Origin: Minisyncoccota bacterium
Lineage (GTDB): Bacteria > Patescibacteriota > Minisyncoccia > Phycocordibacterales > Zambryskibacteraceae
DNA: 64,000 nucleotides
Assembly: GCA_020059045.1 (NCBI GenBank)
Contig: JAGVCW010000021.1
Location: forward strand, 27,821 to 91,820
Direction of reading: 5' to 3'
Shown piece after piece: positions 7,027-21,975 of the stretch (its first letter is position 1; each line of letters starts with the position of its first letter). The position numbers and the translations under genes were made by a program. Under the pieces are notes generated by a model, which saw nothing but the letters and a program-made list of their open reading frames with translations, searched no databases and had not been told where the DNA came from.

Positions 7027-7208
7027 TAGAGAAATAACGAACGAAGTGAGTATATTTCTCATCATCCCTCCCCACTTTCACTGTTGATATTAAAAGAATT
7101 ACTTAACACTGAATGGCCGATTTTAGCTAAAGTTATTTATTAATGTCGTTAGTGAAAGTGGGGAGGGATCACGATTGTTTCTAACTCGCTTCGCTCATAA
7201 GAAAAAAC
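7027..7208. repeat. Family-B nested hairpin element, copy B1 (rpsJ-rplC spacer)
   Basis: Outer arms are AACGAACGAAGTGAGT and AACTCGCTTCGCTCAT. The inner stem is a perfect 19 bp (ATCCCTCCCCACTTTCACT / AGTGAAAGTGGGGAGGGAT). Confidence 0.75.
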
Positions 7209-7817
7209 GTGAAATTTATCCTCGCAAAAAAGAATAGAATGTCAGAAGTCTTTACTGAGAGTGGTTTGGTAATTCCTGTTACTATTCTTTCTGCTACTCC
7301 TATGGTGGTAACTCAGATGAAAGATGAGTCGACCGACGGGTACAAAGCTGTACAAGTAGGATTTGGTACACGCAGAGAAAAGAGAATAAACAAGGCGGTA
7401 AAAGGGCATACCAAGGAGCTTGGCAATTTTCTAAAGCTAAAAGAATTTCGCCTCAAGGATGATACATTTGTCCGCGGTGACAAGATAGATGTTTCTGTCT
7501 TTACTGCAGGAGATGTGGTTGAAGTCTCAGCCATTTCTAAGGGTAAAGGTTTCCAAGGTGTCGTGAAGCGCCACGGATTTGCCGGTGGTCCACGAAGTCA
7601 TGGGCAGAAACACTCAGAGCGTGAGCCAGGATCTATCGGCGGAGGATTGCGTACACATGTTCCGAAAGGTATGCGCATGGCAGGGCGAATGGGTGGCGAT
7701 CGTATAACCGTAAGGAATCTTAAAGTTGTCGAGGTTAATCCTACAGAGAATATTATTTTAGTTTCTGGCGCGGTGCCGGGGAGAAGAGGAACGATTGTCG
7801 AAATCAGAGGTAAATAA
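7209..7817 (+). CDS. rplC: 50S ribosomal protein L3
   Basis: GTG start. KGKGFQGVVKRHGFAGGP region, and position within the S10 operon. Confidence 0.93.
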   Translation: MKFILAKKNRMSEVFTESGLVIPVTILSATPMVVTQMKDESTDGYKAVQVGFGTRREKRINKAVKGHTKELGNFLKLKEFRLKDDTFVRGDKIDVSVFTAGDVVEVSAISKGKGFQGVVKRHGFAGGPRSHGQKHSEREPGSIGGGLRTHVPKGMRMAGRMGGDRITVRNLKVVEVNPTENIILVSGAVPGRRGTIVEIRGK

Positions 7818-7888
7818 GTTGTAGATGTTCTAAATGTTATATATGTCTGACAATTACAACAACTAGAACAATTACAACAATTAGAACC
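7818..7888. repeat. Family-A hairpin element, copy A1 (rplC-rplD spacer)
   Basis: Imperfect arms GTTGTAGATGTTCTA.. and ..TAGAACAATTACAAC around the apex ATGTCTGACA. Confidence 0.7.
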
Positions 7889-8659
7889 ATGGACACAACA
7901 GTTTATAACCAAAAAGGTGATTCAGTAGGGAAGATTAAGATTCCTGAATCAGTTTTCGGCGTGAAGTGGAATTCTGACATGGTTCACCAAGTTGTGACGT
8001 CCATGACATCTAGTGCGCGCAGAAACACGGCTCATACAAAGACTCGTGGGGAAGTACGGGGAGGAGGCAAGAAGCCTTGGAAGCAGAAGGGTACAGGACA
8101 GGCTCGTCACGGCTCGACTCGTTCACCAATATGGGTAGGAGGAGGTGTGGCACACGGTCCAAGAAACGATAAGAATTATGATCGCAAGGTGAATCGCAAA
8201 ATGAAGACCAAGGCTCTGTTTGCTATACTTTCTAGAAAGCTAAGTGATGGAGAAATAATTTTTATAGATGCGATTACAATGGGAGAAGCGAAGACAAAGA
8301 ATGCAATCAATATTATTTCAAATTTGAGAAAAATTGAGGGTTTCGATAAGATCTTTAATAAAAAGAAAAACAGTGCTCTCATTACTCTTGGCGAGAAAGA
8401 CGATTCTATAACAAGAAGTTTTAAAAACATAGGGAACGTGAGTGTCGATGAAATTCGTAATATAAACCCAGTTACACTTTTAAATTACAAAGCTCTCATC
8501 ATTTTAAATCCAGAAGCGTCTCTTCGATTACTTGAATCAAGGCTTAAGCAGAAAGCTACAGGTGATGCAGAAGGAGTGATAAAGAAAAAGTTTACAGCTA
8601 AAAAGAAAGGAGCTACAACAAAGAAAAAAGTAGTAGCTGCAAAGCCAAAGTCTTTATAA
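7889..8659 (+). CDS. rplD: 50S ribosomal protein L4 with a Lys-rich C-terminal tail
   Basis: GGGKKPWKQKGTGQARHGS core. The 256 aa include about 50 extra basic C-terminal residues. Confidence 0.93.
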   Translation: MDTTVYNQKGDSVGKIKIPESVFGVKWNSDMVHQVVTSMTSSARRNTAHTKTRGEVRGGGKKPWKQKGTGQARHGSTRSPIWVGGGVAHGPRNDKNYDRKVNRKMKTKALFAILSRKLSDGEIIFIDAITMGEAKTKNAINIISNLRKIEGFDKIFNKKKNSALITLGEKDDSITRSFKNIGNVSVDEIRNINPVTLLNYKALIILNPEASLRLLESRLKQKATGDAEGVIKKKFTAKKKGATTKKKVVAAKPKSL

Positions 8660-8669
8660 CAACTCATTT

Positions 8670-9050
8670 ATGGCCCTATTTTCAAAAAAACCCAAAGAAA
8701 AAGTTAAGAAAGACTCTCCAAAGAGTGTTTCACCAGAAGGACCTGTCGCATCAATCGAAACGATGGGTGGTACATCTTTTGCCCATATTCTCTTGCAGCC
8801 ACGTATTACGGAGAAAGCATCTCTCAAGGCAGAGAGCAATAATGTTTATGTCTTTGAAGTAAGCCCTCGTGCGTCAAAAAGTGACATAAGGCAGGCAGTG
8901 AAAGAAATTTATAAAGTGTCTCCAGAAAAAGTTTCTGTCGCACGAATCCCAAGTAAAAGTATTGTGGTTCGTGGTAAGCAAGGTGTGCGATCAGGTGGCA
9001 AGAAAGCCTATGTGTACCTGAAGAAGGGAGAGAAGATAGAGGTAATTTAG
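8670..9050 (+). CDS. rplW: 50S ribosomal protein L23
   Basis: VYVFEVSPRASKSDIRQAVKEIY core, and operon position. Confidence 0.9.
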   Translation: MALFSKKPKEKVKKDSPKSVSPEGPVASIETMGGTSFAHILLQPRITEKASLKAESNNVYVFEVSPRASKSDIRQAVKEIYKVSPEKVSVARIPSKSIVVRGKQGVRSGGKKAYVYLKKGEKIEVI

Positions 9051-9225
9051 AAATTCAACGAACGAAGTGAGTATGAATTACTTAACCCCAACAAATTTTA
9101 TAGATACACAATTACCCAATTATTCTTGTGTATTTAATAACCACGAGTTATTATCCTTGGGCAATTTCTCAACGATAAAATTTGAGGGGGTCATGATTTT
9201 CTAATCGCTCTGCTCAAGAAAATCT
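9051..9225. repeat. Family-B nested hairpin element, copy B2 (rplW-rplB spacer)
   Basis: 5' arm is AACGAACGAAGTGAGTATGAATTACTTAACCCC. 3' arm is GGGGGTCATGATTTTCTAATCGCTCTGCTCAAGAAAATC, running into the ATG. Confidence 0.75.
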
Positions 9226-10065
9226 ATGAAACATTACAAACCAACAACCAAATCGCGAAGACAGATGACCGGTATAGACTACGGGAAAGTTTTGACCGCG
9301 AAAGATCCTTTGAAAAGTCTTACTCATGGAACTAAGCGTGATGTAGGCCGCAACCACCATGGTCGTGTTACAACACGTCACAAGGGAGGTGGGCACAAGC
9401 GTCTTTTCAGAGACATTGATTTTACATACAACAAATTTGATATTCCATTCAAAGTTTTAACAGTAGAATACGATCCAAACAGAACTGGTTTCATTGGCAT
9501 TGTAGTCTACAAGGATGGAGAAAAGAGATATGTCTTACTCCACAAAGGAGCGCGTGTTGGTGATACCTATATAGTTTCAGCTAAGGCTCCAGAGACAGTG
9601 GGCAACCGCCTGCCACTTGGCAAAATCACAGTGGGTACTTTCGTGTACAACGTAGAAGTTAAACCTCGTGGAGGTGCAAGGCTTGCAAGAAGCGCAGGTA
9701 ACTACATAGAAGTTGTTGCAAAGGATGCAGGCTACGTGGATCTTAAAATGCCATCTACAGAAGTAAGAAAAGTTTTAGAGACTTGCTGGGCGACAATCGG
9801 TGAAGTATCAAACGATGAGAACAGACTAGTAAATATCGGAAAAGCTGGAAGAAGTCGCTGGCTTGGTATAAGGCCTACTGTTCGTGGTTCTGCTATGAAC
9901 CCAGTAGATCATCCACACGGTGGAGGAGAGGGTCGTTCAGGACGCGGACGACGTCGAGCAGTGAGTGCATTTGGCAAACCAACAGGCAAGGGGCAGAAGT
10001 CTCGTACTCCAAAGAAATATTCAAACAAATTTATTGTTCGTCGCAGAAAAGTAGGAAAGAAGTAG
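9226..10065 (+). CDS. rplB: 50S ribosomal protein L2
   Basis: GRNHHGRVTTRHKGGGHKR and HPHGGGEGR signatures. Confidence 0.96.
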   Translation: MKHYKPTTKSRRQMTGIDYGKVLTAKDPLKSLTHGTKRDVGRNHHGRVTTRHKGGGHKRLFRDIDFTYNKFDIPFKVLTVEYDPNRTGFIGIVVYKDGEKRYVLLHKGARVGDTYIVSAKAPETVGNRLPLGKITVGTFVYNVEVKPRGGARLARSAGNYIEVVAKDAGYVDLKMPSTEVRKVLETCWATIGEVSNDENRLVNIGKAGRSRWLGIRPTVRGSAMNPVDHPHGGGEGRSGRGRRRAVSAFGKPTGKGQKSRTPKKYSNKFIVRRRKVGKK

Positions 10066-10103
10066 GATGATAAAGAGTAACCTACGACCGACAACACTAC
10101 TGA

Positions 10104-10121
10104 GTGGAAGCCGAGCTTCCA
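10104..10121. repeat. 18-nt GC hairpin GTGGAAGCCGAGCTTCCA, copy 1
   Basis: The identical 18-mer recurs at 19099-19116. Both copies lie just after the last r-protein gene before an operon interruption. Confidence 0.7.
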
Positions 10122-10154
10122 AAAATGTCTGTATTTCTTGCATAGCAGTGTAAA

Positions 10155-10182
10155 TAAAAAAGCCCCGCATGTTTATGGGGCT
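10155..10182 (-). terminator. Intrinsic terminator of the minus-strand MYG1-like gene
   Basis: AGCCCC/GGGGCT stem, with a T-run on the minus strand (A-run at 10155-10160). Confidence 0.65.
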
Positions 10183-10186
10183 ACGG

Positions 10187-11155
10187 TTATACTGTATCAA
10201 GCACAGCTTGTATCTCTGCGGCCAGTGCATTGGCTTCAGCCGCGTCTCTACTCTCATTTTCCTCAAGTTGAGCAGAGTCAACTGGTACTTCTCCAGGCAG
10301 AAGTGCAAGTTCAGCAAGTCGCAAAGCACCCTCTCTACTCTCGGCTACGATTAGGTATCGGTTTTGGTGGCAAAACACGGCATCTCCTACCCCGGTGATT
10401 TCCTGAAGTTCAAGACCTCTCATACCTGCCCACTCTCTTGGTAACAAGCGAGGCGAAGTTGTATCAGTAGCTCTGTGCCAGCGTTTCACTGTCTGTACGA
10501 GCCAGCCGACCCTTTTGGGGTACACGACGAGGACTATTTCTGGGAAGTTTCTACTTACGTAGTGATCCCAACGGCATGAGTCATCAAGGAGTAAAACCTG
10601 TGGGCTTAAGTGCTTCTCTACAGCTCTCTTGACCACCTCTTCTCCTCGAATCTCTTCTTTTGCGCGGAAGATTGCACCACTTATGTTTGCTCGTGCAAAC
10701 GCAAGAGCAATATCCCAGTCACTTGGCTTAAATGTAGCTACTGCACTTGAAATGCTGTATGGCCGGATTTCACCAGCTTTGTATCTTACCAGAGTATACC
10801 TGTTGTCTGCCGCATCTATGGGTATAACCATGTGCCTCTCAATTTCTTCAGCTATCCGAGTGTCTTGAGCAATTCGCAGTCCGAAATGTTTCCATACAAG
10901 ACCGAAGGCAGCGTATGGAACACCATTTGCTCGTCTACCAGCACCTCCTTGCATATGGTGATCGAAGTCTAGAGTTTCTGGGTTGTACACTCCTCCTACA
11001 TCAATACGTACATTGCTTTCAGCTATTACTCTTGGATCGCGGCTACGCACCACAAGAGCTTCCATGTATTCCGGAAGCAATTGTAAGGCCGCGATCGCGT
11101 ACACCTCGTCTGCATGGATGGGTCCGTCGTGGGTCACAATTTGCACAGACAACAC
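10187..11155 (-). CDS. MYG1/UPF0160-family metal-dependent hydrolase-like protein
   Basis: VTHDGPIHADEVYA, VVRSRDP and IDVGGVYNPETLDFDHH match the family layout I recall (HxGxFHxDE .. DVGG..(Y/F)DHH). Confidence 0.7.
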   Translation of the reverse strand: MLSVQIVTHDGPIHADEVYAIAALQLLPEYMEALVVRSRDPRVIAESNVRIDVGGVYNPETLDFDHHMQGGAGRRANGVPYAAFGLVWKHFGLRIAQDTRIAEEIERHMVIPIDAADNRYTLVRYKAGEIRPYSISSAVATFKPSDWDIALAFARANISGAIFRAKEEIRGEEVVKRAVEKHLSPQVLLLDDSCRWDHYVSRNFPEIVLVVYPKRVGWLVQTVKRWHRATDTTSPRLLPREWAGMRGLELQEITGVGDAVFCHQNRYLIVAESREGALRLAELALLPGEVPVDSAQLEENESRDAAEANALAAEIQAVLDTV

Positions 11156-11369
11156 CTCAAAATGGGAGTGAAATGCTTCTATAACAAAGGGCAGTACAAA
11201 ATACAGAGTACATATTTTTAGAAAATAGTCAAGATTTGCTAGATTTGCAATAAGTCTATGAGTTTATGGGTATTAGTTATTTTCTCACAATATAAGTGCT
11301 TATTTACTCCCAAAATATGGCCTAAGATAGCCCTTTTTGGGGATTTATGTAATTTAAATCAAAAAGTTC

Positions 11370-11397
11370 TTGACAAATAAATTGTATATGTTATACT
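11370..11397 (+). promoter_or_regulatory. Sigma70-type promoter
   Basis: TTGACA (11370-11375), 16-nt spacer, TATACT (11392-11397). Confidence 0.6.
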
Positions 11398-11479
11398 ATA
11401 GGTAGTAGTAAGTAGTACATTTCAGTTGCAGTTCCCCGTTCAAGGTAGTCCACTCAGCACACCTTATGGAGGTATTACC

Positions 11480-12199
11480 ATGGCTAGCAAGAAGAAGCAG
11501 CAGGTAGCAACGAGCCCGGTTCCCAGCATGCAGGCCGCGGTTGCCACGATGGCGGAAGAGGCTCCCGCCGAGAGCAGGCAGTTCTCTTCGAGCCAGCCGA
11601 AGTGGTCCCCGACTCAGTTCATTGAGACCCTGGGGAAGATCAAGGAAGAACTCCCGGCCGCCGTGTCGAACTTCAAGATCGTGAAGAAGATCGTGGGTCT
11701 CGAGATGGACGGCAAGGATGAGATGGCCTTTCGGCAGATGATTCAGCTCGCCGGGGCCGTTGCTACCAAAGCATCCCAGAAGGCGGACGCGGAAGACCCA
11801 TCAAAGGTGTATCTGGATGCCAGGAAGGTCCAGGCTGCGCTCACCGCATGTGAGCGTGCCAATTCCAATCTGGCACGCACCTTCGACAGGTACATCGGGA
11901 ACTGGCGGAAGCGGGCTGACACCATGATGTCGAACGCAAGGCGCAAGGACCCGGACGTGATCGAGCGCGAGAGTGACACAATCGCGGACAACATGGAGGC
12001 ACTGGATGAGGCACTTGAAGGAAAGAAGCCTCGTCAAGAGGTCCTCGAGATCTACAACAGGACCTTCACCCATCTTCGCGAGCTCTCAAAGGAAGCAACG
12101 GCGCTTGCTACTGAAGCTTCGAGGAGAGAGCAGATCGAAACGATCGGCTCACTCGGGGACGACATCCTCGACTCTCTCGCGGAACTCGACAGCATCTAA
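11480..12199 (+). CDS. GC-rich helical orphan protein (239 aa)
   Basis: ATG at 11480 follows GGAGG. It has its own promoter and terminator. Hand counts give 42/60 and 38/60 G+C in two lines, far above the flanks. Confidence 0.6.
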   Translation: MASKKKQQVATSPVPSMQAAVATMAEEAPAESRQFSSSQPKWSPTQFIETLGKIKEELPAAVSNFKIVKKIVGLEMDGKDEMAFRQMIQLAGAVATKASQKADAEDPSKVYLDARKVQAALTACERANSNLARTFDRYIGNWRKRADTMMSNARRKDPDVIERESDTIADNMEALDEALEGKKPRQEVLEIYNRTFTHLRELSKEATALATEASRREQIETIGSLGDDILDSLAELDSI

Positions 12200-12217
12200 G
12201 TGCTGCGAGCAGTAGTA

Positions 12218-12254
12218 CCCCACGAAAAACCCCCAAGGTATCGTGGGGTTTTTC
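12218..12254 (+). terminator. Intrinsic terminator
   Basis: CCCCACGA / TCGTGGGG 8-bp stem followed by TTTTTC. Confidence 0.7.
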
Positions 12255-12472
12255 TTTTATTGCAATTGCGGAGAATACCATGACAGCTAGGCTGCATGGG
12301 ATGAATCCGCAAATACATACTATATGTCGGCGGAGCCGACTCCTCTTGCAACAAAGTTTGCCCTGATGCCTCGTCCTGCTACTCGCCGAGGCTTTGCGAG
12401 GGAATAGCTTACTGCGATTATAGGACGAGGCCAATTTTATTAAGATAATAATCTTTCCTGTATAATTTATAT

Positions 12473-13441
12473 ATGGAATACAAAACTATTATTTTGCCTA
12501 CTAGGCCTCAGGTGGATACTGTTATTTCTATATTCGTATTAAAGCACTTTGGTGAAAGTTTCTTCCCTGGTATTAAGACTGCTAGCTATGAGTTCATGTC
12601 CAACTTACCAGCTGGTGCGAGCGAAGAGAGCTTGGCAGAGGAAGGAAGGCTCCCAATAGATATTGGTGGTGGACGATTTGATCATCACAACAAAGAGGAG
12701 AAAACCACTGTTCTAAATCTTTTGACTAGCTTTCTTGCTCAAGGGAATAATCCTGCTTTAATAAAACTCAAGAAGTTTGTAGAAAGAGATGATTTTTATG
12801 GTAAAGGAATAATATCCTCTGACCCCCTTGATCGTGCTTTCGGTTTGCCCGGGCTTATTGCTTGTCTTAATAAAAAGTATTCAAGTAACCCAGCGAAAGT
12901 GCTGGATATAATTCTTCCAGTTGTTGATGCGTACTACGAAGAAGAAGAGAAGAGGGCAATAGGAATGCCTCTTGAACTTAAGGAGAAAATAGCAAATGGT
13001 AAAGCTAGAGTATTTAATACAGAGCAGAGAGGCAGAAAACTTAAATGCATTTTCATAGAAAGCGATAACATAAGTCTACCGGGTTTTCTTCGATCTAAGA
13101 TTGGAGGGGAGCACGATGTGATTGCAATAAGGCTATCGTCTGGACACACAAATATTCTTACGAGTCTCAAAAATACAGTTGATTTGCGTTCACTCGCAGT
13201 GCTTATTCGCTTACAAGAAGCCGAGGCGCGAGGTGTGAAGCTAGATGGAGTGCCGGAAGATTTAGCAGTACCGGGTAAAATCGATGAAGTACTTAATTGG
13301 TACTACGATACAGCTACTAACTCTTTACTAAATGGTGGTCCTAATCCAAGTGAGACCGACCCAACGGGAATAGCATCTTTCGAATTTGAAAAAATAATGG
13401 AAATAGGGCTCTCTGAGAAACTCTGGTCTCCATCACGATAA
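12473..13441 (+). CDS. Divergent UPF0160/MYG1-like paralog that has lost the N-terminal metal motif
   Basis: Keeps IDIGGGRFDHH. Where the other copy has THDGPIHADE, this one has LPTRPQVDTV. Composition is AT-rich (20/60 G+C in line 12481). Confidence 0.45.
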   Translation: MEYKTIILPTRPQVDTVISIFVLKHFGESFFPGIKTASYEFMSNLPAGASEESLAEEGRLPIDIGGGRFDHHNKEEKTTVLNLLTSFLAQGNNPALIKLKKFVERDDFYGKGIISSDPLDRAFGLPGLIACLNKKYSSNPAKVLDIILPVVDAYYEEEEKRAIGMPLELKEKIANGKARVFNTEQRGRKLKCIFIESDNISLPGFLRSKIGGEHDVIAIRLSSGHTNILTSLKNTVDLRSLAVLIRLQEAEARGVKLDGVPEDLAVPGKIDEVLNWYYDTATNSLLNGGPNPSETDPTGIASFEFEKIMEIGLSEKLWSPSR

Positions 13442-13486
13442 GCCAAATACCCTTTATATTAGCCACGTAATGGTCTATAAAAATCC

Positions 13487-13515
13487 TTGACTTTTATAGA
13501 CCATTATGCTATTAT
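13487..13515 (+). promoter_or_regulatory. Sigma70-type promoter
   Basis: TTGACT (13487-13492), 17-nt spacer, TATTAT (13510-13515). Confidence 0.55.
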
Positions 13516-13564
13516 TATACAAGAACAGCAGTTTCACACACCGACCCTTTCACAAGGAGTTTGC

Positions 13565-14155
13565 ATGGTAAAAAGCAAGGAAGTCGTCGACCCCGCATTT
13601 GTCGGAGAAGTGGAAGCGGCGCTCGTGTACCTCACGGTGCCCGGCAATCTGAAGTATCTTATACCCGGGTGGGTAAAAGAGGCGGACTTCTCGAATACTC
13701 CAAAGTCCGAGCGCCAGATGGCCCCACGATCCGATAAGTTGTTCCAAGTTGCACAAGCGAGGATGGATGGGGTGCTCGGGGATCTTGCCGGCGCTGGTTT
13801 CCTCCCCTCTGAAGTGTTTTATCTGAATCGGGATGGTGGCGCGCGGCGGGTTCGTATCACATGCAAGCGCTTTGGCGCACCGCTGACACTCGATCAGGTG
13901 CAGTCTCTCATTCCCCTCACTACCGAGCGGATATGGGATGTGATGGCTCATCGGACGGCTGCTACCAGGAACATTCCATGGGAGCACATTTCGATCAATG
14001 CCGGACGCCCCGATCATGCTCCAGAAGGGGGATTCGAAGCGGTTCGCGTGGTCGAAGGTCGAGTCTCGGTAGTTTCCCTTCTCAACACGGACGAGCTGCG
14101 GAAGGCGTCTGAGTCCATCATCGGCCTCCTCGAATCGCTGCAGATAACACGCTAA
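13565..14155 (+). CDS. GC-rich orphan protein (196 aa)
   Basis: ATG at 13565 follows AAGGAG, downstream of the 13487 promoter, and a terminator follows. The 13550..14182 minus-strand ORF is its mirror. Confidence 0.55.
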   Translation: MVKSKEVVDPAFVGEVEAALVYLTVPGNLKYLIPGWVKEADFSNTPKSERQMAPRSDKLFQVAQARMDGVLGDLAGAGFLPSEVFYLNRDGGARRVRITCKRFGAPLTLDQVQSLIPLTTERIWDVMAHRTAATRNIPWEHISINAGRPDHAPEGGFEAVRVVEGRVSVVSLLNTDELRKASESIIGLLESLQITR

Positions 14156-14183
14156 TCCTCCTTGCGATAACAGGGGGGTCAAC

Positions 14184-14212
14184 GAGCCAGACAGAAATGT
14201 CTGGCTCTTTTC
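14184..14212 (+). terminator. Intrinsic terminator
   Basis: GAGCCAGAC / GTCTGGCTC stem followed by a T-run. Confidence 0.7.
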
Positions 14213-14219
14213 TATTTAA

Positions 14220-14709: not shown

Positions 14710-14813
14710 CTTAAATGTTCTAAGTGTTGTATGTGTTATACATGTCATACAACTTCAACAATTCAAACAAATAAAACAACTAGAACATCTATAACAATTA
14801 AAACCGCGAATTT
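14710..14813. repeat. Family-A hairpin element, copy A2 (rpsS-rplV spacer)
   Basis: TGTTCTAAGTGTTGTATG.. and ..CAACTAGAACATCTATAACA arms around the apex CATGTCATACAAC. Confidence 0.65.
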
Positions 14814-15212: not shown

Positions 15213-15248
15213 TTTTAAATTTTGATTTTTAAATTTTAATTTATATTC

Positions 15249-15929
15249 ATGAGTCATACAGTTCACCCATTTTCACACAGACTAGGTATCATAAGAGATT
15301 GGAGATCTCGATGGTTTGGTACAAAGAAGAATTACAAAGAATTTCTTCGCGGTGATCTTTTGATACGAGCATTTCTAGAAGGAAAGCTTCGTGGTATGTA
15401 CGTAAGTACTATTGAAATCGAGCGTAATGAAAAAGTTCTGCGCATTATAGTTGAGACTTCTCGACCCGGTATGATCATTGGTCGTAGTGGCGATGGAGCA
15501 GTCCGGCTCAAAGACCAGATCGTAGCCATGCTTCGCCGAGAGAAGGTGGGTCGTGCTAACGAAGAGGTTCGTCTCGATATTAAGGAGGTTAGATCTCCAG
15601 AATCAAATGCTCACATTGTTTCTCAGATGATAGGAGAGGGACTTGAGAAAAGACTTCCATACAGAAGAGTTGTGAAGCAAATGGTAGAAAAGGTTATGGC
15701 CAATCGTGATGTGAAAGGGGTAAAGGTAACTGTTGCAGGAAGACTCGGGGGCGCAAGTATTGCACGATCAGAGACAAGAAAGCTTGGTAGAATTCCTCTT
15801 CAGACATTTCGTGCTGATGTAGAGTTCGCACGGCACGAAGCTCGTCTCCCATATGGCAATCTGGGTATAAAAGTTTGGATTTACAAAGGTGACATTTTCT
15901 CCACCAAGGTTGGTGGAGAAAAGTCATAA
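15249..15929 (+). CDS. rpsC: 30S ribosomal protein S3
   Basis: HPFSHRLGIIRDWRSRWF, then KH and S3-C regions, with GIKVWIYKGDIF near the end. Confidence 0.95.
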   Translation: MSHTVHPFSHRLGIIRDWRSRWFGTKKNYKEFLRGDLLIRAFLEGKLRGMYVSTIEIERNEKVLRIIVETSRPGMIIGRSGDGAVRLKDQIVAMLRREKVGRANEEVRLDIKEVRSPESNAHIVSQMIGEGLEKRLPYRRVVKQMVEKVMANRDVKGVKVTVAGRLGGASIARSETRKLGRIPLQTFRADVEFARHEARLPYGNLGIKVWIYKGDIFSTKVGGEKS

Positions 15930-16396
15930 TTGTTCTACTTGTTATAGTTGTTCTATATGTCAGAGAGATTTCAAGGATATAGGTTTGAAAAATTGGAAGT
16001 TTGGCAGGTGGGAATGCGTATAGTAAGTAAGGTATATTCAATTACGAAAAGGTTTCCTAAAGACGAGACCTACGCCCTGTCTGACCAGTTAAAAAGAGCA
16101 GCCACTTCGATAGTTTTAAACTTGGCAGAAGGCTCAGGACAGCCAACAAAAAAGTTATTCTCTCTTTATATTGAACGTGCCAAGTCCTCAACACTTGAAT
16201 GTGTGGCTTGTACAAAAATTGCTGTTCAGGAAAAACTTGTAGAACCTGATGAGGTTAAATCTTTGGAAGAGCTACTTGCGGAAGAGTATTTTAAACTTAT
16301 TGCGCTAGCAAAATCTATGAGGTAAGATCTTCCTACTCTAGCTTGTAACCTATCTAACACCTATAACAACTAGAACATATATAACACTTACAACCA
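15930..16396. repeat. Family-A hairpin element, copy A3, with an ORF inserted at its apex
   Basis: Left arm TGTTCTACTTGTTATAG pairs with right arm CTATAACAACTAGAACA. The apex ATGTCAGAG supplies ATG 15957 of the enclosed ORF. Confidence 0.65.
15948..16325 (+). CDS. Four-helix-bundle protein of the 23S rRNA intervening-sequence protein family
   Basis: YRFEKLEVWQ..FPKDETYALSDQLKRAATSIVLNLAEGSG..AKSSTLE matches the family pattern I recall. The start is TTG 15948 or ATG 15957. Confidence 0.75.
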   Translation: MFYMSERFQGYRFEKLEVWQVGMRIVSKVYSITKRFPKDETYALSDQLKRAATSIVLNLAEGSGQPTKKLFSLYIERAKSSTLECVACTKIAVQEKLVEPDEVKSLEELLAEEYFKLIALAKSMR

Positions 16397-16813
16397 ATGC
16401 TTTTCCCAAAAAAAGTAAAATATCGAAAATGGCACACTATGCGCAAGAACCCCAAGAAGGTGGGTTCTGCTACTCGTGGTATAGAAGTTAACTTCGGATC
16501 CTATGGTCTGAAAGCTCTTGAGTATGGCCGTATTAAGTCGAACCAGATTGAGTCAGCAAGAAAGGTTATGTCTCGCTCACTCGGAAAGACTGGCAAGATT
16601 TGGATCAGGATTTTCCCAGACATGCCATACACAGCGAAACCTGCCGAAGTTAAGCTCGGTAAAGGAAAAGGTGATCTCCAAGGTTACGTCGCTCCAGTTC
16701 ACGCAGGCAGAGTACTTTTTGAAGTAGATGGAGTAACGGAGGCTGTGGCAAGAGAGTCGCTCCGTAAAGCAGGAACAAAGCTACCAGTGAAAACAAGGAT
16801 AGTGGCTAGGTAA
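16397..16813 (+). CDS. rplP: 50S ribosomal protein L16
   Basis: MLFPKKVKYRKWH.., then GKGKGDLQGYVAPVHAGRVLFEV. Confidence 0.95.
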   Translation: MLFPKKVKYRKWHTMRKNPKKVGSATRGIEVNFGSYGLKALEYGRIKSNQIESARKVMSRSLGKTGKIWIRIFPDMPYTAKPAEVKLGKGKGDLQGYVAPVHAGRVLFEVDGVTEAVARESLRKAGTKLPVKTRIVAR

Positions 16814-16903
16814 ATAGCGCTTGTTGTAAATGATGTATATGTTCTAAGTGTCTGACAAATACAACATCTACAACATTTAAAAACATTTACAACAAAATAT
16901 AGT
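16814..16903. repeat. Family-A hairpin element, copy A4 (rplP-rpmC spacer)
   Basis: TTGTTGTAAATGATGTATATGTTCTAAG arm, apex GTGTCTGACA, then AATACAACATCTACAACATTT arm. Confidence 0.7.
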
Positions 16904-17095
16904 ATGTCTAAGGAACTCAAAGAAAAAAACGAAAAGGAATTAAGTAAAATGCTTGCGGATAATCAAGAGAATTTACGCTCTTTTCGATTTGGTATCGCAG
17001 GTTCGAAGAATCGCAATGTGAAAGAGGGACGGGCAATTCGCAAAGACATTGCAAGGATCCAAACTGAGATGAGTGCTCGCAAGAAGGCTAAATAG
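16904..17095 (+). CDS. rpmC: 50S ribosomal protein L29
   Basis: 63-aa helical product (ELKEKNEKELSKML..LRSFRF) at the expected operon position. Confidence 0.88.
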   Translation: MSKELKEKNEKELSKMLADNQENLRSFRFGIAGSKNRNVKEGRAIRKDIARIQTEMSARKKAK

Positions 17096-17142
17096 ACAAG
17101 AGTCTGAAAATATGTAGTATAAACACACTAACTTATAGAGAG

Positions 17143-17382
17143 ATGAGTGCAATATCCACAAAAAATAAAGAATTTACAGGTACAGTAGTGTCAGACAAAA
17201 TGAAAGACACGATTGTTGTTAGTGTGGAGAGGTTTACGAAGCACCCTCGTTACGGCAAGTACATCCGAAGCCGTCGTAAGTTCAAGGTTCACGATGTAGG
17301 AAATACGAAAAAGATTGGAGAAAAAGTAGTATTCATTGCTTGTCGCCCAATTTCAAAAGATAAGAGATTCAGAGTTATTTAA
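17143..17382 (+). CDS. rpsQ: 30S ribosomal protein S17
   Basis: GTVVSDKMKDTIVVSVERFTKHPRYGKY core. Confidence 0.93.
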   Translation: MSAISTKNKEFTGTVVSDKMKDTIVVSVERFTKHPRYGKYIRSRRKFKVHDVGNTKKIGEKVVFIACRPISKDKRFRVI

Positions 17383-17558
17383 GGAGCTTGGCGACTATAA
17401 ATAACCTGACCCCCCATCATTTTTAACAATGAAACCTGAAACATTAAAAAAAGATATTGAAAAACATTTCTATTATAGTATCCGATGAAACATATTTTAA
17501 AAATGATGAGGGATGGTGATTTTCAAAAACTCACTATCGCTCGTTAAGAAAATCAACC
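17383..17558. repeat. Family-B nested hairpin element, copy B3 (rpsQ-rplN spacer)
   Basis: Inner stem is CCCCATCATTTTTAA / TTAAAAATGATGAGGG. The 3' end ACTCACTATCGCTCGTTAAGAAAATCAACC is identical to copy B6. Confidence 0.7.
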
Positions 17559-17930
17559 ATGATCCAACCCCGCTCAATAGTAAAAATAGCAGACAACTCA
17601 GGCGCCAAAATCGGTAGAGTTTTCAAGGTGCTTGGTGGGTCTAAGAAGAGATACGCACGTATTGGTGATGTGGTGGTATTGTCGGTTCAGGTAGCACAAC
17701 CTAGAAAGTCAGTGAAAAAGAAAGACATTTTGTACGCGGTGGTAGCACGTCAGAGAACACCATTTCGCAGACAAGATGGTTCCTACATTCGTTTCGATGA
17801 GAATGCAGTGATAATTGTTGATAAAGCAAAGCACGAGCCTATCGCAGGACGTGTTTTCGGACCGATCCCAAGAGAGCTTGGCGAGATGGGATTCCAGCAG
17901 GTAATATCATTAGCACAAGAGGTAGTTTAG
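17559..17930 (+). CDS. rplN: 50S ribosomal protein L14
   Basis: MIQPRSIVKIADNSGAK.. core. Confidence 0.96.
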   Translation: MIQPRSIVKIADNSGAKIGRVFKVLGGSKKRYARIGDVVVLSVQVAQPRKSVKKKDILYAVVARQRTPFRRQDGSYIRFDENAVIIVDKAKHEPIAGRVFGPIPRELGEMGFQQVISLAQEVV

Positions 17931-18149
17931 AAAATCAAGGAGTGAAACGACTATGATTTACTTAACCCCACCTAAATTTTGCATCGAAGACAGAAGCGCA
18001 GTGCGCGGCCGAGTAGGCCAAGCGGTCATGGGCGAAGCGCTGCGCCTCGAAAGGTTTGTGACTATTCGTCACTCGCACTTCTTGTGGTAATGTAAAAGCA
18101 AAATTTAGGCGGGGTCATGATTTTCCAATCGCTCCGCTCAAAAAAATCA
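17931..18149. repeat. Family-B nested hairpin element, copy B4 (rplN-rplX spacer), with a GC-rich insert
   Basis: Arms are ATGATTTACTTAACCCCACCTAAATTTT and AAAATTTAGGCGGGGTCATGATTTT. The loop holds a GC-rich segment (GCGCAG..CTGCGC). Confidence 0.75.
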
Positions 18150-18455
18150 ATGAAAATAAAAAGGGATGACAACGTAATAGTGATAGGAGGCAAGGACAGA
18201 GGCAAAACTGGTAAAGTTTTGCGTGCTTTTCCTCGTGAATCGAAAGTTGTCATCTCGGGCGTAAACTTGAAAAAACTTCATAAGCGTCCCACAAAATCCG
18301 GGCAGAAGGGACAAGTCGTTGAGCAAGCTGCACCCATACATGTATCAAATGTTATGATTGTGGATCCAAAATCTGGGAAGAGAACAAGAGTTCTACGCAA
18401 GATGGAAGGAGACAAGAAAGTCAGAGTAGCAAAAAGTAGCGGCACCACGCTGTAA
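18150..18455 (+). CDS. rplX: 50S ribosomal protein L24
   Basis: I set the start to ATG 18150 (MKIKRDDNVIVIGGKDRGKTGKV, the KOW motif). Confidence 0.92.
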   Translation: MKIKRDDNVIVIGGKDRGKTGKVLRAFPRESKVVISGVNLKKLHKRPTKSGQKGQVVEQAAPIHVSNVMIVDPKSGKRTRVLRKMEGDKKVRVAKSSGTTL

Positions 18456-18532
18456 AGTTATAAATGTTGTAATTGTTGTAGTGTCAGACATTTATAACAT
18501 CTACAACATTTAGAACAATTTCAACATACAAA
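18456..18532. repeat. Family-A hairpin element, copy A5 (rplX-rplE spacer)
   Basis: AAATGTTGTAATTGTTGTAG arm, apex GTGTCAGACA, then TTTATAACATCTACAACATTT arm. Confidence 0.7.
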
Positions 18533-19081
18533 ATGCAAAGCATAAAAGAAAAAACTCAAAAAACGTTTTCATCACTTAAGGCCACTCGTGGTTATAAAAA
18601 TCCCATGCAATCTCCACGTATTGTCAAAGTTGTTGTGAGTGTAGGAACGGGCTCATTTAAGGATGCGAAGAAAAAGGAACTTGCCCTGGATCGTCTTACG
18701 AAGATTACCGGCCAGCGCCCATCAGTACGCGGTGCAAAGCAGTCAATTGCCGCATTTAAAGTCCGACAGGGAGACCCGGTAGGACTTGCAGTCACACTTC
18801 GTGGCAAGAGAATGTACGATTTTCTAGATAAGTTAATCCATGTGGCCCTACCTCGTACCAAGGACTTCAGAGGAGTATCTTCTAAAGCTATTGATAAGAT
18901 GGGCAATTACACTCTAGGTATTAAGGAGCACACTATTTTCCCAGAGACAGCAGACGAGGAACTTAAAGACGTTTTTGGGCTAGCAATAACAATAGTTACG
19001 ACCGCAAGAACGAAGGAGGAGACCAAAGAATTTCTAGATTATCTAAGTTTCCCTTTCAAAAAAACAGAAGAGAAGAAGTAA
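18533..19081 (+). CDS. rplE: 50S ribosomal protein L5
   Basis: PRIVKVVVSVGTG.., then GNYTLGIKEHTIFPE. Confidence 0.95.
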   Translation: MQSIKEKTQKTFSSLKATRGYKNPMQSPRIVKVVVSVGTGSFKDAKKKELALDRLTKITGQRPSVRGAKQSIAAFKVRQGDPVGLAVTLRGKRMYDFLDKLIHVALPRTKDFRGVSSKAIDKMGNYTLGIKEHTIFPETADEELKDVFGLAITIVTTARTKEETKEFLDYLSFPFKKTEEKK

Positions 19082-19084
19082 ATC

Positions 19085-19120
19085 CGTGGAAGCGAAGCGT
19101 GGAAGCCGAGCTTCCACGGA
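19085..19120. repeat. GC hairpin with the shared 18-mer GTGGAAGCCGAGCTTCCA, copy 2
   Basis: CCGTGGAAGC..GCTTCCACGG stem. The 18-mer at 19099-19116 is identical to 10104-10121. Confidence 0.7.
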
Positions 19121-19184
19121 ACATACTGTGTTCAGAATCTTTAAATGCTTGTAAACTTCATATAAATTTGTTTCTATAATAGAT

Positions 19185-19391
19185 ATGACAGAAGAATCAC
19201 TAAACTTAAACGAGACAAAGGAGAAGAGCGCGTTTTCCATGGGCGATCATTCAGATTTTATTGCAAGAGAGCTTGACCAAGTGAATAGGGAGTTACTCGA
19301 TGTAAGTTTAGACATACCAGATGGGGAGGTATCAGGTTTGGAAGAAGTGTATGATGCGATGATAAGGGATCTAAAAATCGAAAATAAATAA
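19185..19391 (+). CDS. Small acidic hypothetical protein
   Basis: 68-codon ATG ORF. No motif. Confidence 0.35.
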   Translation: MTEESLNLNETKEKSAFSMGDHSDFIARELDQVNRELLDVSLDIPDGEVSGLEEVYDAMIRDLKIENK

Positions 19392-19410
19392 TTCAAGTTC
19401 TCACTTTCGT

Positions 19411-19752
19411 ATGAACAAATTTTTATCTTTAGTAACGCGTATTCTGGGTGAGCTAGAATTTTCGCAAGAAAACAAAGAAAAAGTTGCATATGATCTCAAT
19501 CGCCTAATTATGACAAAGGTTGTCATAGCACTTCTTGATGAGGCCCCAGAGAATGTTCAAACTGAAGTTGAAAAACTTTTAAGTGCTGGTGAAACACTTG
19601 AAGTTGCAAATATCCTCAAGTCTACATTTACGACTGAAAGATTCGAAGAAGTAAGCCTTCATATTACTCGAGATGTGGTTCACAAATACTTAAGCGAATT
19701 GTTTGCAAAAACTCACAAGGAAAACAAAGAGAAACTTGTCGCTTCACTCTAA
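19411..19752 (+). CDS. Hypothetical helical protein
   Basis: 113-codon ATG ORF that ends at the hairpin shared with the convergent RNA gene. Confidence 0.4.
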   Translation: MNKFLSLVTRILGELEFSQENKEKVAYDLNRLIMTKVVIALLDEAPENVQTEVEKLLSAGETLEVANILKSTFTTERFEEVSLHITRDVVHKYLSELFAKTHKENKEKLVASL

Positions 19753-19780
19753 TATTTGTGCTGGGCTCTAATAGCACAGT

Positions 19781-20281
19781 ACTTTTGTATAAAAACAAAC
19801 CCGCTCCTTGGTGAGGGCGGGCGATAGTGGGAAGAAAACTTCCAATGGTTTGGAAACTGCATGAAACCGGGTACTTCCTCCCTTTGTCTAGTCAATGGCG
19901 ATTGGGCGCCTATGACATCCTCTTGGCTGTAAACCTCGTAACTCACCATGAGTTACGGCAGGCTAACGCCAACTAAGCTGAGGACTTCGACTGGGCTGTC
20001 TCTGCACGTGGTCCCGAATGAGACGCCTAGTGAGCGAATGACCCGAACGCAGACTACCCGGTTTCACACTTTGTAATGAACTTATATCTTGCACTCTCTT
20101 TCGAGAGATGATTTCGTACCCTGGGGCGGCGAGCGGGCCGAAGCGCCGTCACGACCCCAGGGACTTCCTCGATATTTAACCTCTGATGCCGAGTACCGCA
20201 TCGGAGGCGATCCCCGTTAGGACGTAAGCGAATGCACCGGTTTAGGGCACATCACTGTATCCGAGCCCGCATGGGGGAGCT
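19781..20281 (-). ncRNA. Roughly 500-nt GC-rich structured RNA with RNase P RNA-like motifs; identity unresolved
   Basis: About 640 bp hold no ORF apart from one 66-aa shadow. Consensus promoter upstream; terminator CCCGC..GCGGG plus UUUGUUUUU at 19781-19811. GAAA-capped hairpin, 8-bp hairpin at 19928-19946, 12-bp long-range helix, and GAGGAAGUCC and ACCCGGUUUCA motifs. Confidence 0.6.
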
Positions 20282-20286
20282 TGTGA

Positions 20287-20314
20287 GCTTATGTATATTA
20301 TAGCATGTACACGT
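20287..20314 (-). promoter_or_regulatory. Consensus sigma70 promoter of the structured RNA
   Basis: The minus strand reads TTGACA (20314-20309), a 16-nt spacer, then TATAAT (20292-20287). Confidence 0.7.
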
Positions 20315-20592
20315 TATTTGTCAAGGAGTTTCTCATTATCTTTTCTGTGACACATGAAATATGGCTAAAACTAAGGCTTATTTGAATATCACTTTAAAGT
20401 AGAGGGAAATTTGTTGGCAAGTTCTTGAAATTATCCGCTTAACCCTTATTTTATTGACTTTATACGGCTCAATTGCTAAGCTGTTGCAAAGCTTTTGGAA
20501 GCTTTTTTCTTTACTTAATCGCTTCATTCGTCAATATTCTTCCTTTTGAGGGCTTTCGCTCATGCGAGGTCGCTAGAGGATAAACAATATTT

Positions 20593-20778
20593 GTGGCCAA
20601 GAAATCAGTTATAGCAAGATCAGTTAAAAAGCCTAAATTCTCGACTCGCATCGTGAGGCGTTGTTTCCGTTGTGGTCGAAAGCGTGGCTATATGCAAGAT
20701 TTTGATCTATGTAGAATATGTTTTCGCGAATTTGCAAATGAAGGCAAAATCCCGGGCGTTAAGAAATCAAGTTGGTAA
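20593..20778 (+). CDS. rpsN: 30S ribosomal protein S14, zinc-ribbon type Z
   Basis: 61 aa with a GTG start. [17 protein letters not shown] carries two CxxC pairs. Confidence 0.93.
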
Positions 20779-20881
20779 TAAAAGATTGTTCTAGATGTTG
20801 TAATTGATATACATGTTATAAATGTCTGACAAATACAACAACTAAAACATTTTGAAACAAATATAACATCTCAAACATTAC
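20779..20881. repeat. Family-A hairpin element, copy A6 (rpsN-rpsH spacer)
   Basis: TTGTTCTAGATGTTGTAATTG arm, apex ATGTCTGACA, then AATACAACAACTAAAACA arm. Confidence 0.7.
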
Positions 20882-21265
20882 ATGGATCCCATCGCTGACA
20901 TGATAATAAGAATCAAGAATGCAGGAGAATCCCGCAAGGATACAGTGGCTTTTCCATATTCAAATTTGAAAGCAAGCATCTGCAAAACTCTTCTAGATAG
21001 TGGATACATAAAATCTCTTGTTATAAAAGGGAAGATTGCCAAATCAATAGAAGTCGGACTTATTTACAACGGCAAGTTCCCAAAGATCCAAGGTGTGAAG
21101 AGACTTTCGAAGCCTTCTCGTCGTCTATACAAGGCCTCAAGTGATCTACGGCCGGTTAAGAGAGGGTATGGATCTCTCATCATGTCTACTCCGAAGGGAA
21201 TAATGGTAGGAGAGCATGCCCGTAAGTCTAAAGTCGGTGGTGAGGCATTATTTGAAATATGGTAA
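20882..21265 (+). CDS. rpsH: 30S ribosomal protein S8
   Basis: MDPIADMIIRIKNA.., ending ..GGEALFEIW. Confidence 0.95.
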   Translation: MDPIADMIIRIKNAGESRKDTVAFPYSNLKASICKTLLDSGYIKSLVIKGKIAKSIEVGLIYNGKFPKIQGVKRLSKPSRRLYKASSDLRPVKRGYGSLIMSTPKGIMVGEHARKSKVGGEALFEIW

Positions 21266-21353
21266 TGGCTTTGTCTAAATTTTACGAACGAAGTGAAATA
21301 AAATTTAGTAACAAAACATTAACTCACTATCGTTCGTTAAGAAAATCAACCAC
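21266..21353. repeat. Family-B element, short copy B5 (rpsH-rplF spacer)
   Basis: 88 nt that differ at 2 positions from 21888-21975. Arms are ACGAACGAAGTGA and TCACTATCGTTCGT. Confidence 0.85.
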
Positions 21354-21887
21354 ATGAGCAGAATCGGAAAAGGAAAAATAGATATCCCAGAGAAAACTGA
21401 AGTTATTCTTCTTGCAGACACTGTCGTGGTAAAGGGGCCATTAGGTGAATTGTCTCACAAAGTTCACTCAGATATAGGTATTGAGATTGCTTCCGGAAGC
21501 GTAACATTTGTTCCCAAAGTTAATACTCTTGAAGCAAATGCTCTCTGGGGCACGACGTCTTCTCACTTGTCCAATATGATAGATGGAGTGAACAAACCTT
21601 TTGAAAAGAAATTAGTTTTAGAAGGCATTGGATATAAGGTAGAGGTAAAGGGAGATAAGATTCATCTTGCACTAGGCTTTTCTCATCCTGTAGAAGTTTT
21701 AATACCAAAAGGCTTGAATGTAAAAGTTGAGAAAAATGCCGTAACGATATCTGGCATTAGCAAGGACGATGTCGGGAGTTTCACAGCACGTCTGCGTGAC
21801 TTGAAGAAGCCGGAACCTTACAAAGGCAAAGGATTCAAATATTTTGGCGAAGTGATCAAGATTAAGCAGGGTAAAAAGTCAGTATAA
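21354..21887 (+). CDS. rplF: 50S ribosomal protein L6
   Basis: MSRIGKGKIDIP.., then EPYKGKGFKY. Confidence 0.95.
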   Translation: MSRIGKGKIDIPEKTEVILLADTVVVKGPLGELSHKVHSDIGIEIASGSVTFVPKVNTLEANALWGTTSSHLSNMIDGVNKPFEKKLVLEGIGYKVEVKGDKIHLALGFSHPVEVLIPKGLNVKVEKNAVTISGISKDDVGSFTARLRDLKKPEPYKGKGFKYFGEVIKIKQGKKSV

Positions 21888-21975
21888 TGGCTTTGTCTAA
21901 ATTTTATGAACGAAGTGAAATAAAATTTAGTAACAAAACATTAACTCACTATCGCTCGTTAAGAAAATCAACCAC
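21888..21975. repeat. Family-B element, short copy B6 (rplF-rplR spacer)
   Basis: Near-identical to 21266-21353 (C/T at ..TTTTA[C/T]GAAC and T/C at ..ATCG[T/C]TCG). Confidence 0.85.

Follow-up and report, generated by a model that had tools for sequence, protein, structure and literature searches.

What are the long spacers that interrupt the S10-spc ribosomal-protein operon of a Minisyncoccota bacterium (assembly GCA_020059045.1, contig JAGVCW010000021.1, positions 27,821 to 91,820), and what do they do to the essential genes that they separate? This 64,000-nucleotide (nt) stretch of DNA, which we call the window, carries the operon on its + strand, with fusA and tuf ahead of it. An earlier note had described six of the spacers (B1 to B6) as copies of a nested hairpin element, family B, whose conserved 5' and 3' arms would pair as an outer and an inner stem. 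We find that family B is a previously undescribed structured intercistronic repeat family in Patescibacteria, absent from Rfam, and that covariation supports not the outer stem but two local hairpins, P0 near the 5' end and P3 at the 3' end, the latter reaching into the start region of the next gene. Tentatively, we propose that family B may be a copy-and-paste intercistronic RNA element, similar to a miniature inverted-repeat transposable element (MITE), that would occlude the downstream start codon and tie it to upstream translation. It probably affects translation of the next gene.

All six spacers, 88 to 219 nt long, are present where they had been reported, and they are flanked by the expected ribosomal-protein genes (Pfam; names are given in the source records), with L3 starting at GTG 7209 and L24 at ATG 18150. 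The L6 protein of the window has no more than 69% identity to any other among 5.8 billion proteins, and its named matches come from metagenome-assembled genomes (MAGs) of Zambryskibacteria, Parcubacteria, and Patescibacteria. In relatives with 61 to 69% L6 identity, five of the six spacers are 1 to 31 nt long, rpsJ-rplC being the exception. Since the C termini of the proteins encoded upstream of the element sites are native and are kept in relatives, and since the relatives have short spacers, we conclude that the elements are insertions that start directly after native stop codons. The rpsJ-rplC spacer of relatives is long (135 to 138 nt) and structured while their other spacers are tight (L003 2969-3106, L004 582-719, and L024 660-794; loci compared with the window carry the prefix L). 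The L003 and L024 sequences of this spacer are unrelated to each other, and that of L003 terminates in GTTAAGAAAAATG, which is reminiscent of the family-B pre-start module.

The ends of the six spacers are related, as the earlier note had proposed, with motif counts above chance: ACGAACGAAGTGA with ≤2 mismatches has 5 matches compared with 1.3 expected, 4 of them inside the spacers, and TCGYTCGTTAAGAAAATCA has 3 matches compared with 0.03 expected. The 5' arm is shared in general, but those of B3 and B4 are variants (AAGGAGCTTGGCGAC and AAGGAGTGAAACGAC, respectively). Two covariance models, R1 for the 3' module and R2 for the 5' module, recover every known copy, all six of the window among them, and give no further match in the other 49 kb of the window or in the relatives' loci. 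The window copies are non-coding and are clustered in 15 kb.

A full copy consists, in order, of the upstream stop codon, a segment X5, the 5' arm, a segment X'a, a variable hairpin P2, a segment X'b, the 3' arm, an A-rich pre-start module X3, and the start codon. X5 is A-rich (e.g., AGAAAAUUA), the 5' arm is AAcGAaCG.aAGuGAg, and X'a is U-rich and is followed by CCCC before P2. After P2 come GGGG, X'b (..UGAUUUUC), the 3' arm CUCACUAUCGUUCGUU, and X3 (AAGAAAAUCAACC), then the start codon. The conserved arms are 13 to 16 nt long, and B1, B2, and B4 have a different 3' arm, UCGCUYYGCUCA. B5 and B6, whose 98% identity covers exactly the interval between the stop codon and the start codon, are minimal copies that lack P2 and X'b. 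B5 and B6 also lack the inner stem that had been proposed, as well as the TGATTTTC segment; the perfect 19-bp stem of B1 and the GC-rich insert of B4 were both confirmed.

The helices were evaluated in comparison with 500 shuffles. On an ungapped MAFFT alignment of 11 copies, P0, which pairs X5 with X'a, has 91.9% of its cells paired, compared with 65.1 ± 3.5% for the shuffled alignments, a value reached by none of the 500 shuffles; 8 of its 9 pairs have double changes, its covariation score is 0.699 versus 0.226, and slid registers pair in only 36 to 56% of cells. A separate permutation test of P0 gave 0/20000. P3, which pairs X'b with X3 and the start codon, has 91.1% of cells paired compared with 86.4 ± 1.2% (0/500 shuffles), with double changes in 3 pairs, and a permutation test of its outer 5 bp with the start context gave 20/20000. 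These outer pairs change together with the start context: they are UCACG/CGUGA in B1, which has a GTG start, UCAU/AUGA in B2 and B4, AUGGU/ACCAU in B3, GUGGU/ACCAU in most other main-type copies, and GUGAU/AUCAC in the atypical copy L012. P3 takes in the start codon, or the 2 to 5 nt ahead of it, in 12 of the 13 copies, and it covaries with this start region.

In contrast, the arm-arm helix (P1) is paired in 72.0% of cells compared with 71.8% for the shuffles (263/500), and its slid registers give 33 to 43%. The arms are 72 to 80% complementary and are subterminal, and X5 and X3, which lie outside them, are not inverted copies of each other. Because arm-arm pairing equals that of the shuffles, we conclude that the arms are conserved and complementary, with no compensatory evolution between them. 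The outer stem thus shows no covariation, and it is absent from the minimum free energy (MFE) fold in most copies; the covariation that had been expected in the stems is found, but in P0 and P3, which were not part of the earlier scheme. MFE folds of full copies with their flanks contain P0, P2, and P3 instead of the outer stem, B5 excepted. The 5' arm then sits in the P0 loop and the 3' arm in the P3 loop, and the two loops are mutually complementary. The features of the six copies are listed below in window coordinates.

7027-7208, + strand: B1, whole element, rpsJ-rplC spacer (R1, 49.7 bits; R2, 52.2 bits; fold z = -8.6)
7028-7060, + strand: B1 P0, X5 (7028-7036) with X'a (7053-7060), an 8-bp perfect inverted repeat (GAGAAATA/TATTTCTC) starting 2 nt past the rpsJ stop codon TGA 7024-7026; the loop is the 5' arm AACGAACGAAGTGAG (7036-7050)
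7064-7169, + strand: B1 P2, variable central hairpin whose 19-bp stem (7064-7082 with 7151-7169) is perfect (fold)
7169-7212, + strand: B1 P3, TCACGATTGTTTC (7169-7181) with GAAAAAACGTGA (7201-7212, containing the GTG start 7209), CAC pairing with GUG where other copies have CAU with AUG; the loop contains the 3' arm CTCGCTTCGCTCA (7185-7197) (MFE fold)
9051-9225, + strand: B2, whole element, rplW-rplB spacer (sequence, R1, R2)
9046-9085, + strand: B2 P0, TTTAGAAATTCA (containing the rplW stop codon TAG 9048-9050) with TGAATTACTTAA; the loop is the 5' arm (9057-9071)
9085-9191, + strand: B2 P2, variable central hairpin with 35-nt arms, 74% complementary (MFE fold)
9191-9229, + strand: B2 P3, TCATGATTTTC with GAAAATCTATGA (containing ATG 9226); the loop has the 3' arm TCGCTCTGCTCA (9205-9216) (MFE fold)
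17383-17558, + strand: B3, whole element, rpsQ-rplN spacer, the same spacer as the L009 copy (sequence, R1, R2)
17374-17405, + strand: B3 P0, GTTATTTA (the final two rpsQ codons and the stop codon's TA) with TAAATAAC; variant arm AAGGAGCTTGGCGAC as loop
17411-17512, + strand: B3 P2, variable central hairpin, AT-rich, with 16-nt arms, 94% complementary
17513-17560, + strand: B3 P3, ATGGTGATTTTC with GAAAATCAACCAT (AT of ATG 17559); the loop has the 3' arm CTCACTATCGCTCGTT (17530-17545)
17931-18149, + strand: B4, whole element, rplN-rplX spacer, with a GC-rich insert in P2 (sequence, R1, R2)
17925-17966, + strand: B4 P0, GTTTAGAAAATCA (containing the rplN stop codon TAG) with TGATTTACTTAAC, 13 nt, 85%; the loop is the variant arm AAGGAGTGAAACGAC; an alternative pairing of TGATTTTC with TTAGAAAATCA at 17927-17937 is possible in B4
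17965-18115, + strand: B4 P2, variable central hairpin plus the GC-rich insert, with 18-nt arms, 94% complementary (fold)
18115-18153, + strand: B4 P3, TCATGATTTTC with AAAAATCAATGA (containing ATG 18150); the loop has the 3' arm TCGCTCCGCTCA (18129-18140)
21266-21353, + strand: B5, minimal element, rpsH-rplF spacer, with no P2 and no 5' strand of P3 (R1, R2)
21275-21308, + strand: B5 P0, CTAAATTTTA with TAAAATTTAG, a perfect 10-bp helix with the 5' arm ACGAACGAAGTGA as loop
21323-21353, + strand: B5 3' arm CTCACTATCGTTCGTT (21323-21338) and pre-start module AAGAAAATCAACCAC (21339-21353), then ATG
21888-21975, + strand: B6, minimal element, rplF-rplR spacer (98% identity to B5)
21897-21930, + strand: B6 P0, CTAAATTTTAT with ATAAAATTTAG, a perfect 11-bp helix with the 5' arm as loop
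21945-21975, + strand: B6 3' arm CTCACTATCGCTCGTT and pre-start module AAGAAAATCAACCAC, then ATG

The two clamps, P0 and P3, are fitted to the genes on either side of each copy. On its 5' side P0 often consists of native flanking sequence, to which the inner strand is matched at each site. P0 of B3 pairs GUUAUUUA with UAAAUAAC, and that of L009, which occupies the same spacer in a genome with 77% L14 identity, pairs GUGGUACA with UGUAACAC, a difference of three compensatory double changes. The copies L006 and L008, from different contigs of one MAG, have ~90% identity between the 5' arm and the ATG; X'a is the exception, and that of each copy fits its own upstream stop-codon region. P3 likewise tracks the native start codon. 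Because a transposition signal would not need to match the flanking genes in this way, we read the adaptation of the clamps as suggesting selection on the folded transcript. The 3' module is 81 to 94% identical between genomes (about 96 to 100% by eye over the final 45 nt), compared with 65 to 72% for the adjacent rplF/rplN DNA, which means that it is either under strong constraint or recently spread.

The prediction that further copies exist elsewhere was borne out by two exact-pattern scans, one of JGI metagenomes and the other of GTDB species genomes. At least 7 other Paceibacteria/Parcubacteria genomes or contigs carry the element, at 8 distinct loci; chance matches could be told apart because they lie inside coding DNA of unrelated bacteria. 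One Paceibacterota MAG has copies on two contigs, in the gap between dnaN and an 84-amino-acid (aa) open reading frame (ORF) and in the secE-nusG gap. Other copies are in rpsH-rplF, in rpsQ-rplN (the spacer of B3), ahead of obg in a Minisyncoccia MAG, in ftsA-ftsZ in a Taylorbacteria MAG, and within a pilus operon of a MAG labelled Saccharibacteria. Seven of the eight outside loci are sense-oriented, with the module ending 0 to 2 nt from a start codon, and all 6 window copies are sense-oriented and adjoin the start codon. The sense copies end as ...GGTGATTTTC-AAAAA-CTCACTATCGTTCGTT-AAGAAAATCAACC-ATG.

No Rfam 15 family (of 4227) matches at the gathering score in the whole window, L012, L015, or L007, or at E ≤ 1 in window positions 6600-22400, L008, L009, L010, or L021. 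Viral contigs of IMG/VR gave only chance matches inside coding DNA, and we found no published description of family B in the literature. Mis-called N-terminal extensions (MVIFKNSLSFVKKINH), tried as a route to more copies, yielded none in the protein database. The long L6 proteins P0091 and P0092 were rejected as element markers, being gene-calling artefacts beside 22- to 25-nt spacers. Also rejected was the small ORF in P2 as an element gene, which is absent from other copies and has neither a Pfam match nor a homologue in the protein database. L007, L009, and L010 have a common P2 ORF of 38 to 50 codons (M..DIKQ...GGDF.KLTIVR*), which ends at the TAA of CGTTAAG. Taken jointly with action at the mRNA level, the description of family B as lineage-restricted (Paceibacteria/Parcubacteria), non-coding, about 90 to 300 nt long, and placed in normally tiny gaps of co-transcribed genes is one that we advance with some hesitation.

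Comparisons between relatives bear on how the element spreads. B5/B6 and L006/L008 are recent intragenomic copies. L007 carries an element at rpsH-rplF, while the spacer there in L024 (80% L6 identity to L007) is 14 nt. On this evidence, the elements are dispensable, replaceable, and copy-and-paste in behavior. The suggestion that a MITE-like element has colonized the operon is thus upheld by presence, absence, and replacement between relatives, but not by any target-site duplication or transposase. Neither a transposase nor an autonomous partner with the same ends was found in the window and the loci looked at, and the ends show no consistent direct repeat, their flanks being A/T-rich stop- and start-codon contexts.

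How might such an element act on translation? Most window genes have no Shine-Dalgarno (SD) sequence; roughly half of Parcubacteria are reported to lack the anti-SD motif (PMC9297842). GGAGG is missing ahead of the six downstream genes, as the earlier note had stated, but most genes of the genome share this trait; because the lack is genome-wide, it is not a property of the element. The further proposal that a AAGAAAATCA context replaces the SD sequence is weakened, since nearly all genes here are without one. Several genes have a TATAAT-like box 4 to 8 nt ahead of the ATG (e.g., 12473, 19185, 29543, and 37828 [minus strand]), and these boxes near the ATG suggest leaderless mRNAs.

Ribosomal-protein operons are classically translationally coupled, and without an SD sequence initiation depends on an unstructured start region. 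P3 is predicted at about -9 to -15 kcal/mol, with the start codon of essential genes inside the helix. Since the organism lacks SD sequences, P3 should block initiation by free ribosomes on the downstream gene. P0, for its part, would tie up the stop-codon region, sometimes with the last upstream codons too, and would present the 5' arm in its loop. The folded element could then bring the stop and start codons together, with loop-loop pairing as the likely link between the two ends, and downstream translation would depend on ribosomes arriving from the upstream gene, so that coupling might be preserved or even enforced across the long spacer. Established models of coupling include RNA structures that cover the downstream start and are opened by upstream ribosomes; otherwise coupling normally requires short spacing (PMC12548453). 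A more specific mechanism would be a portable coupling relay, in which a terminating ribosome melts P0, the freed 5' arm invades the P3 loop, and the next start is exposed. We consider this relay doubtful, even when it is taken together with a variant in which the conserved P3 loop and tail would pair with a non-canonical rRNA tail. If it is true, genes would be stoichiometrically coupled across long insertions in bacteria that do not have the Shine-Dalgarno mechanism.

A number of observations weigh against the proposal that family B occludes the downstream start and couples it to upstream translation. When a ribosome footprint was placed on the upstream stop codon in a thermodynamic simulation, the start region failed to open consistently; this equilibrium result is neutral on whether downstream translation depends on upstream translation, and a simple relay is not supported by the energetics of nested structures. 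Arm-arm pairing has no covariation support, and conservation is higher in the 3' arm than in the 5' arm, a hint that something other than the 5' arm is its sequence-specific partner. P3 is missing from B5 and B6, though they lie ahead of essential genes. Exceptions of the G-U and A-C types are nearly equal (13 versus 14 cells), so that there is no mark of sense RNA, rather than DNA, as the selected molecule, and apparent covariation could arise from template-switch "palindrome correction" of quasi-palindromes. With 11 to 13 copies, some of them related, the sample is small, and one copy, L012, is in reverse orientation, directly after the pilC stop codon. The closest relative, L001 (a 521-nt contig with identical L14; 84% mean column identity to the window over a 562-column alignment, about 87% by eye within rplN), holds a different hairpin family in the B3 and B4 spacers, and more distant relatives have nearly no spacer. 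Relatives that have another family or no element at all indicate that the element is dispensable.

Several of these points would be expected if family B were nothing more than a selfish DNA palindrome of the MITE-like or foldback type, spreading through transposition, gene conversion, or horizontal transfer and having no regulatory role; it would persist in operon spacers only because the harm done by a compact hairpin with an A-rich tail is slight, and its hairpins would be by-products of DNA-level processes (terminal inverted repeats or template-switch homogenization). This explanation accommodates the difference between L007 and L024, the other family in the L001 spacers, the near-identical intragenomic copies (B5/B6 within the window and L006/L008 on different contigs), arms that act as conserved inverted repeats without covariation, ends that are structural mirrors (minus-strand covariance-model matches), the reversed L012, and the absence of wobble asymmetry. 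It does not account for the inner strands of P0 and P3 being adapted to the native coding, stop, and start sequence at each site, for the sense orientation next to a start codon of 7/8 outside loci and 6/6 window copies, or for a 3' module far better kept than adjacent coding DNA, even in the apparently orthologous B3 and L009; nor was a target-site duplication, transposase, or autonomous partner found. We regard a selfish palindrome as somewhat unlikely. A role in RNA processing or stability would make P2 (or the arm-arm stem in B5 and B6) an RNase III-type cut site in the polycistronic mRNA, with the P0 hairpin left to shield the 3' end of the upstream message and with the downstream leader remodelled. 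RNase III sites between phage T7 early genes and rRNA intervening-sequence (IVS) hairpins are analogues, rRNA intervening sequences being excised at such stems, and Correia elements, of similar size and habit, are RNase III substrates. P2 is long (16- to 35-nt arms, up to 19 perfect bp) and variable in sequence, as would be expected of a shape-recognized substrate, and the idea becomes more plausible because a second hairpin family encloses a gene for a 23S-rRNA-intervening-sequence protein both here and in L008. However, B5 and B6 have no P2, and cleavage would leave unexplained the start codon within P3 and the conserved complementary loops. We think a processing element rather improbable.

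The extreme conservation of the P3 loop and tail between genomes, which exceeds that of the 5' arm, raises the further possibility of a common operator, in which a putative trans-acting protein or RNA (e.g., a variant 16S rRNA tail) would read the P3 loop and tail (CUCACUAUCGUUCGUUAAGAAAAUCAACC) and co-regulate growth genes (ribosomal proteins, nusG, obg, and ftsZ), with the 5' arm as an internal competitor. Recognition hairpins typically combine a conserved loop with a covarying stem, and the downstream genes are all growth-related. Nevertheless, the complementarity of the arms to the window tmRNA and to a ~490-nt non-coding RNA is no better than that of shuffles, B1, B2, and B4 have a different 3' arm, and close relatives manage without the element; we consider an operator very unlikely. 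A promoter or terminator role was rejected, intrinsic-terminator and sigma-70 matches at the B elements being only at chance level. A phage T7-type promoter, which CTCACTAT partially resembles, was set aside, since transcription driven from the 5' arm would be antisense.

Patescibacteria (the candidate phyla radiation [CPR]) have tiny genomes and reduced ribosomes, and many of their lineages lack Shine-Dalgarno pairing. A repeated, conserved, Rfam-absent element that lies between the stop and start codons of essential, highly expressed genes and pairs with both is for this reason a concrete, testable handle on how CPR bacteria balance translation within operons. If it does occlude the start codon and couple it to upstream translation, it would exemplify a mobile element equipped by itself to keep the operon that it enters working, which would explain why colonization is tolerated in essential operons. 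Were family B merely a tolerated selfish palindrome, it would still be a new repeat family, useful for CPR annotation and for avoiding mis-called gene starts.

Other spacers of the operon are filled by hairpins of a second family, family A (7818-7888, 14710-14813, 16814-16903, 18456-18532, 20779-20881, and 15927-15975 with 16342-16390), with roughly 9-nt periodic units (GTTNTANAT ... NTANAACAA). One family A copy has 49-nt arms, 76% complementary, around a 23S_rRNA_IVP (four-helix-bundle) gene at 15948-16325, and because it encloses this gene, the empty copies look like gene-less IVS-like elements. The Paceibacterota MAG locus L008 has at 2621-3077 a 23S_rRNA_IVP gene between nusG and rplK, with periodic inverted arms (GATAAGGTAATAAGTTTAATAAGGTAAA / TTTAACTTATTAAACTTATCACCCTATC, 89% complementary). 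L001 1-97 and 470-521 hold a third hairpin repeat with a 9-nt period, built on TAGGC (GCCTTAGGCTCTAGGCGTTAGC...).

Two larger insertions also interrupt the operon, and an identical hairpin, GGAAGCCGAGCTTCC, lies at the 5' border of each, at 10106-10120 (after rplB) and 19101-19115 (after rplE). That between rplB and rpsS (10066-14271) is a 4.2-kb higher-GC island with a MYG1-family exonuclease gene (minus strand) and three ORFs without a Pfam match; sigma-70-like promoters and terminators of its own are present in the island, and GGAGG lies upstream of at least one ORF (ATG 11480). The 1.5-kb rplE-rpsN insertion (19082-20592) contains two small ORFs, of 68 and 113 aa, neither with a significant Pfam match, and, on the minus strand at about 19795-20295, a strongly structured, GC-rich antisense RNA of about 490 nt (z = -4.9) that has a perfect TTGACA-16-TATAAT promoter (20324-20297) and whose end (GCCCGCCCUCACCAAGGAGCGGGUUUGUUUUU) resembles an intrinsic terminator. 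This RNA contains GAGGAAGUCC and ACCCGGUUU, which recall RNase P RNA, yet it has no Rfam match even at E ≤ 10. Elsewhere in the window are a tandem 7-nt repeat, (TCATTCC)n, at 25647-25736, a 9-nt periodic repeat at 31790-31906 inside a 1461-aa ORF, and a tmRNA gene at 41241-41678 on the minus strand (Rfam, 101.5 bits).

Among known systems, start-occluding coupling hairpins resemble family B in that the downstream start lies in a hairpin and expression is expected to follow upstream ribosomes (PMC12548453). Those hairpins are single evolved sites at overlapping or closely spaced genes, whereas family B is a repeated portable module, spanning 90 to 220 nt, with complementary loops and with another hairpin placed at the upstream stop codon. 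The rRNA-IVS hairpins with 23S_rRNA_IVP genes (family A) are, like family B, insertions in highly expressed transcripts and occupy the same type of spacer, and hairpins of the family A type can replace family B in a close relative. Family B differs from them in having no IVP gene and no 9-nt periodicity and in having conserved arms and P0/P3 clamps, which family A lacks; assignment of family B to rRNA-IVS-like hairpins with an IVP ORF was accordingly rejected. REP/BIME and IS200/IS605-derived palindromes are also extragenic palindromes within operons, but family B has no GTAG-type head, and no RAYT or TnpA was seen. IS200/IS605 ends were rejected, P0 and P3 being mirror images, with each covariance model matching the other end on the opposite strand only. 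Integron attC sites, with their RYYYAAC ... GTTRRRY core sites, were rejected as well: inspection by eye shows ATTCAAC at the 5' end of B2 alone, the last base of GTTAAGA is a purine, and there is no cassette array.

The remaining comparison is with the Correia repeat-enclosed elements of Neisseria and the ERIC/IRU palindromic repeats. Like family B, these elements are small (about 100 to 160 nt) and non-coding, have inverted-repeat ends and a variable middle, are co-transcribed with neighboring genes, take on hairpin folds in the mRNA, and vary in presence from one relative to another. Family B differs in that no TA target duplication, integration host factor (IHF) site, or promoter is shown, and in having few copies per genome. 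It also differs in its stop-to-start position, in ending at the start codon, and in having inner segments that pair with native flanks, and it is known only from Patescibacteria. By analogy, family B appears to be a variant of the MITE/Correia/ERIC kind, set apart by flank-adapted clamps on the stop and start codons.

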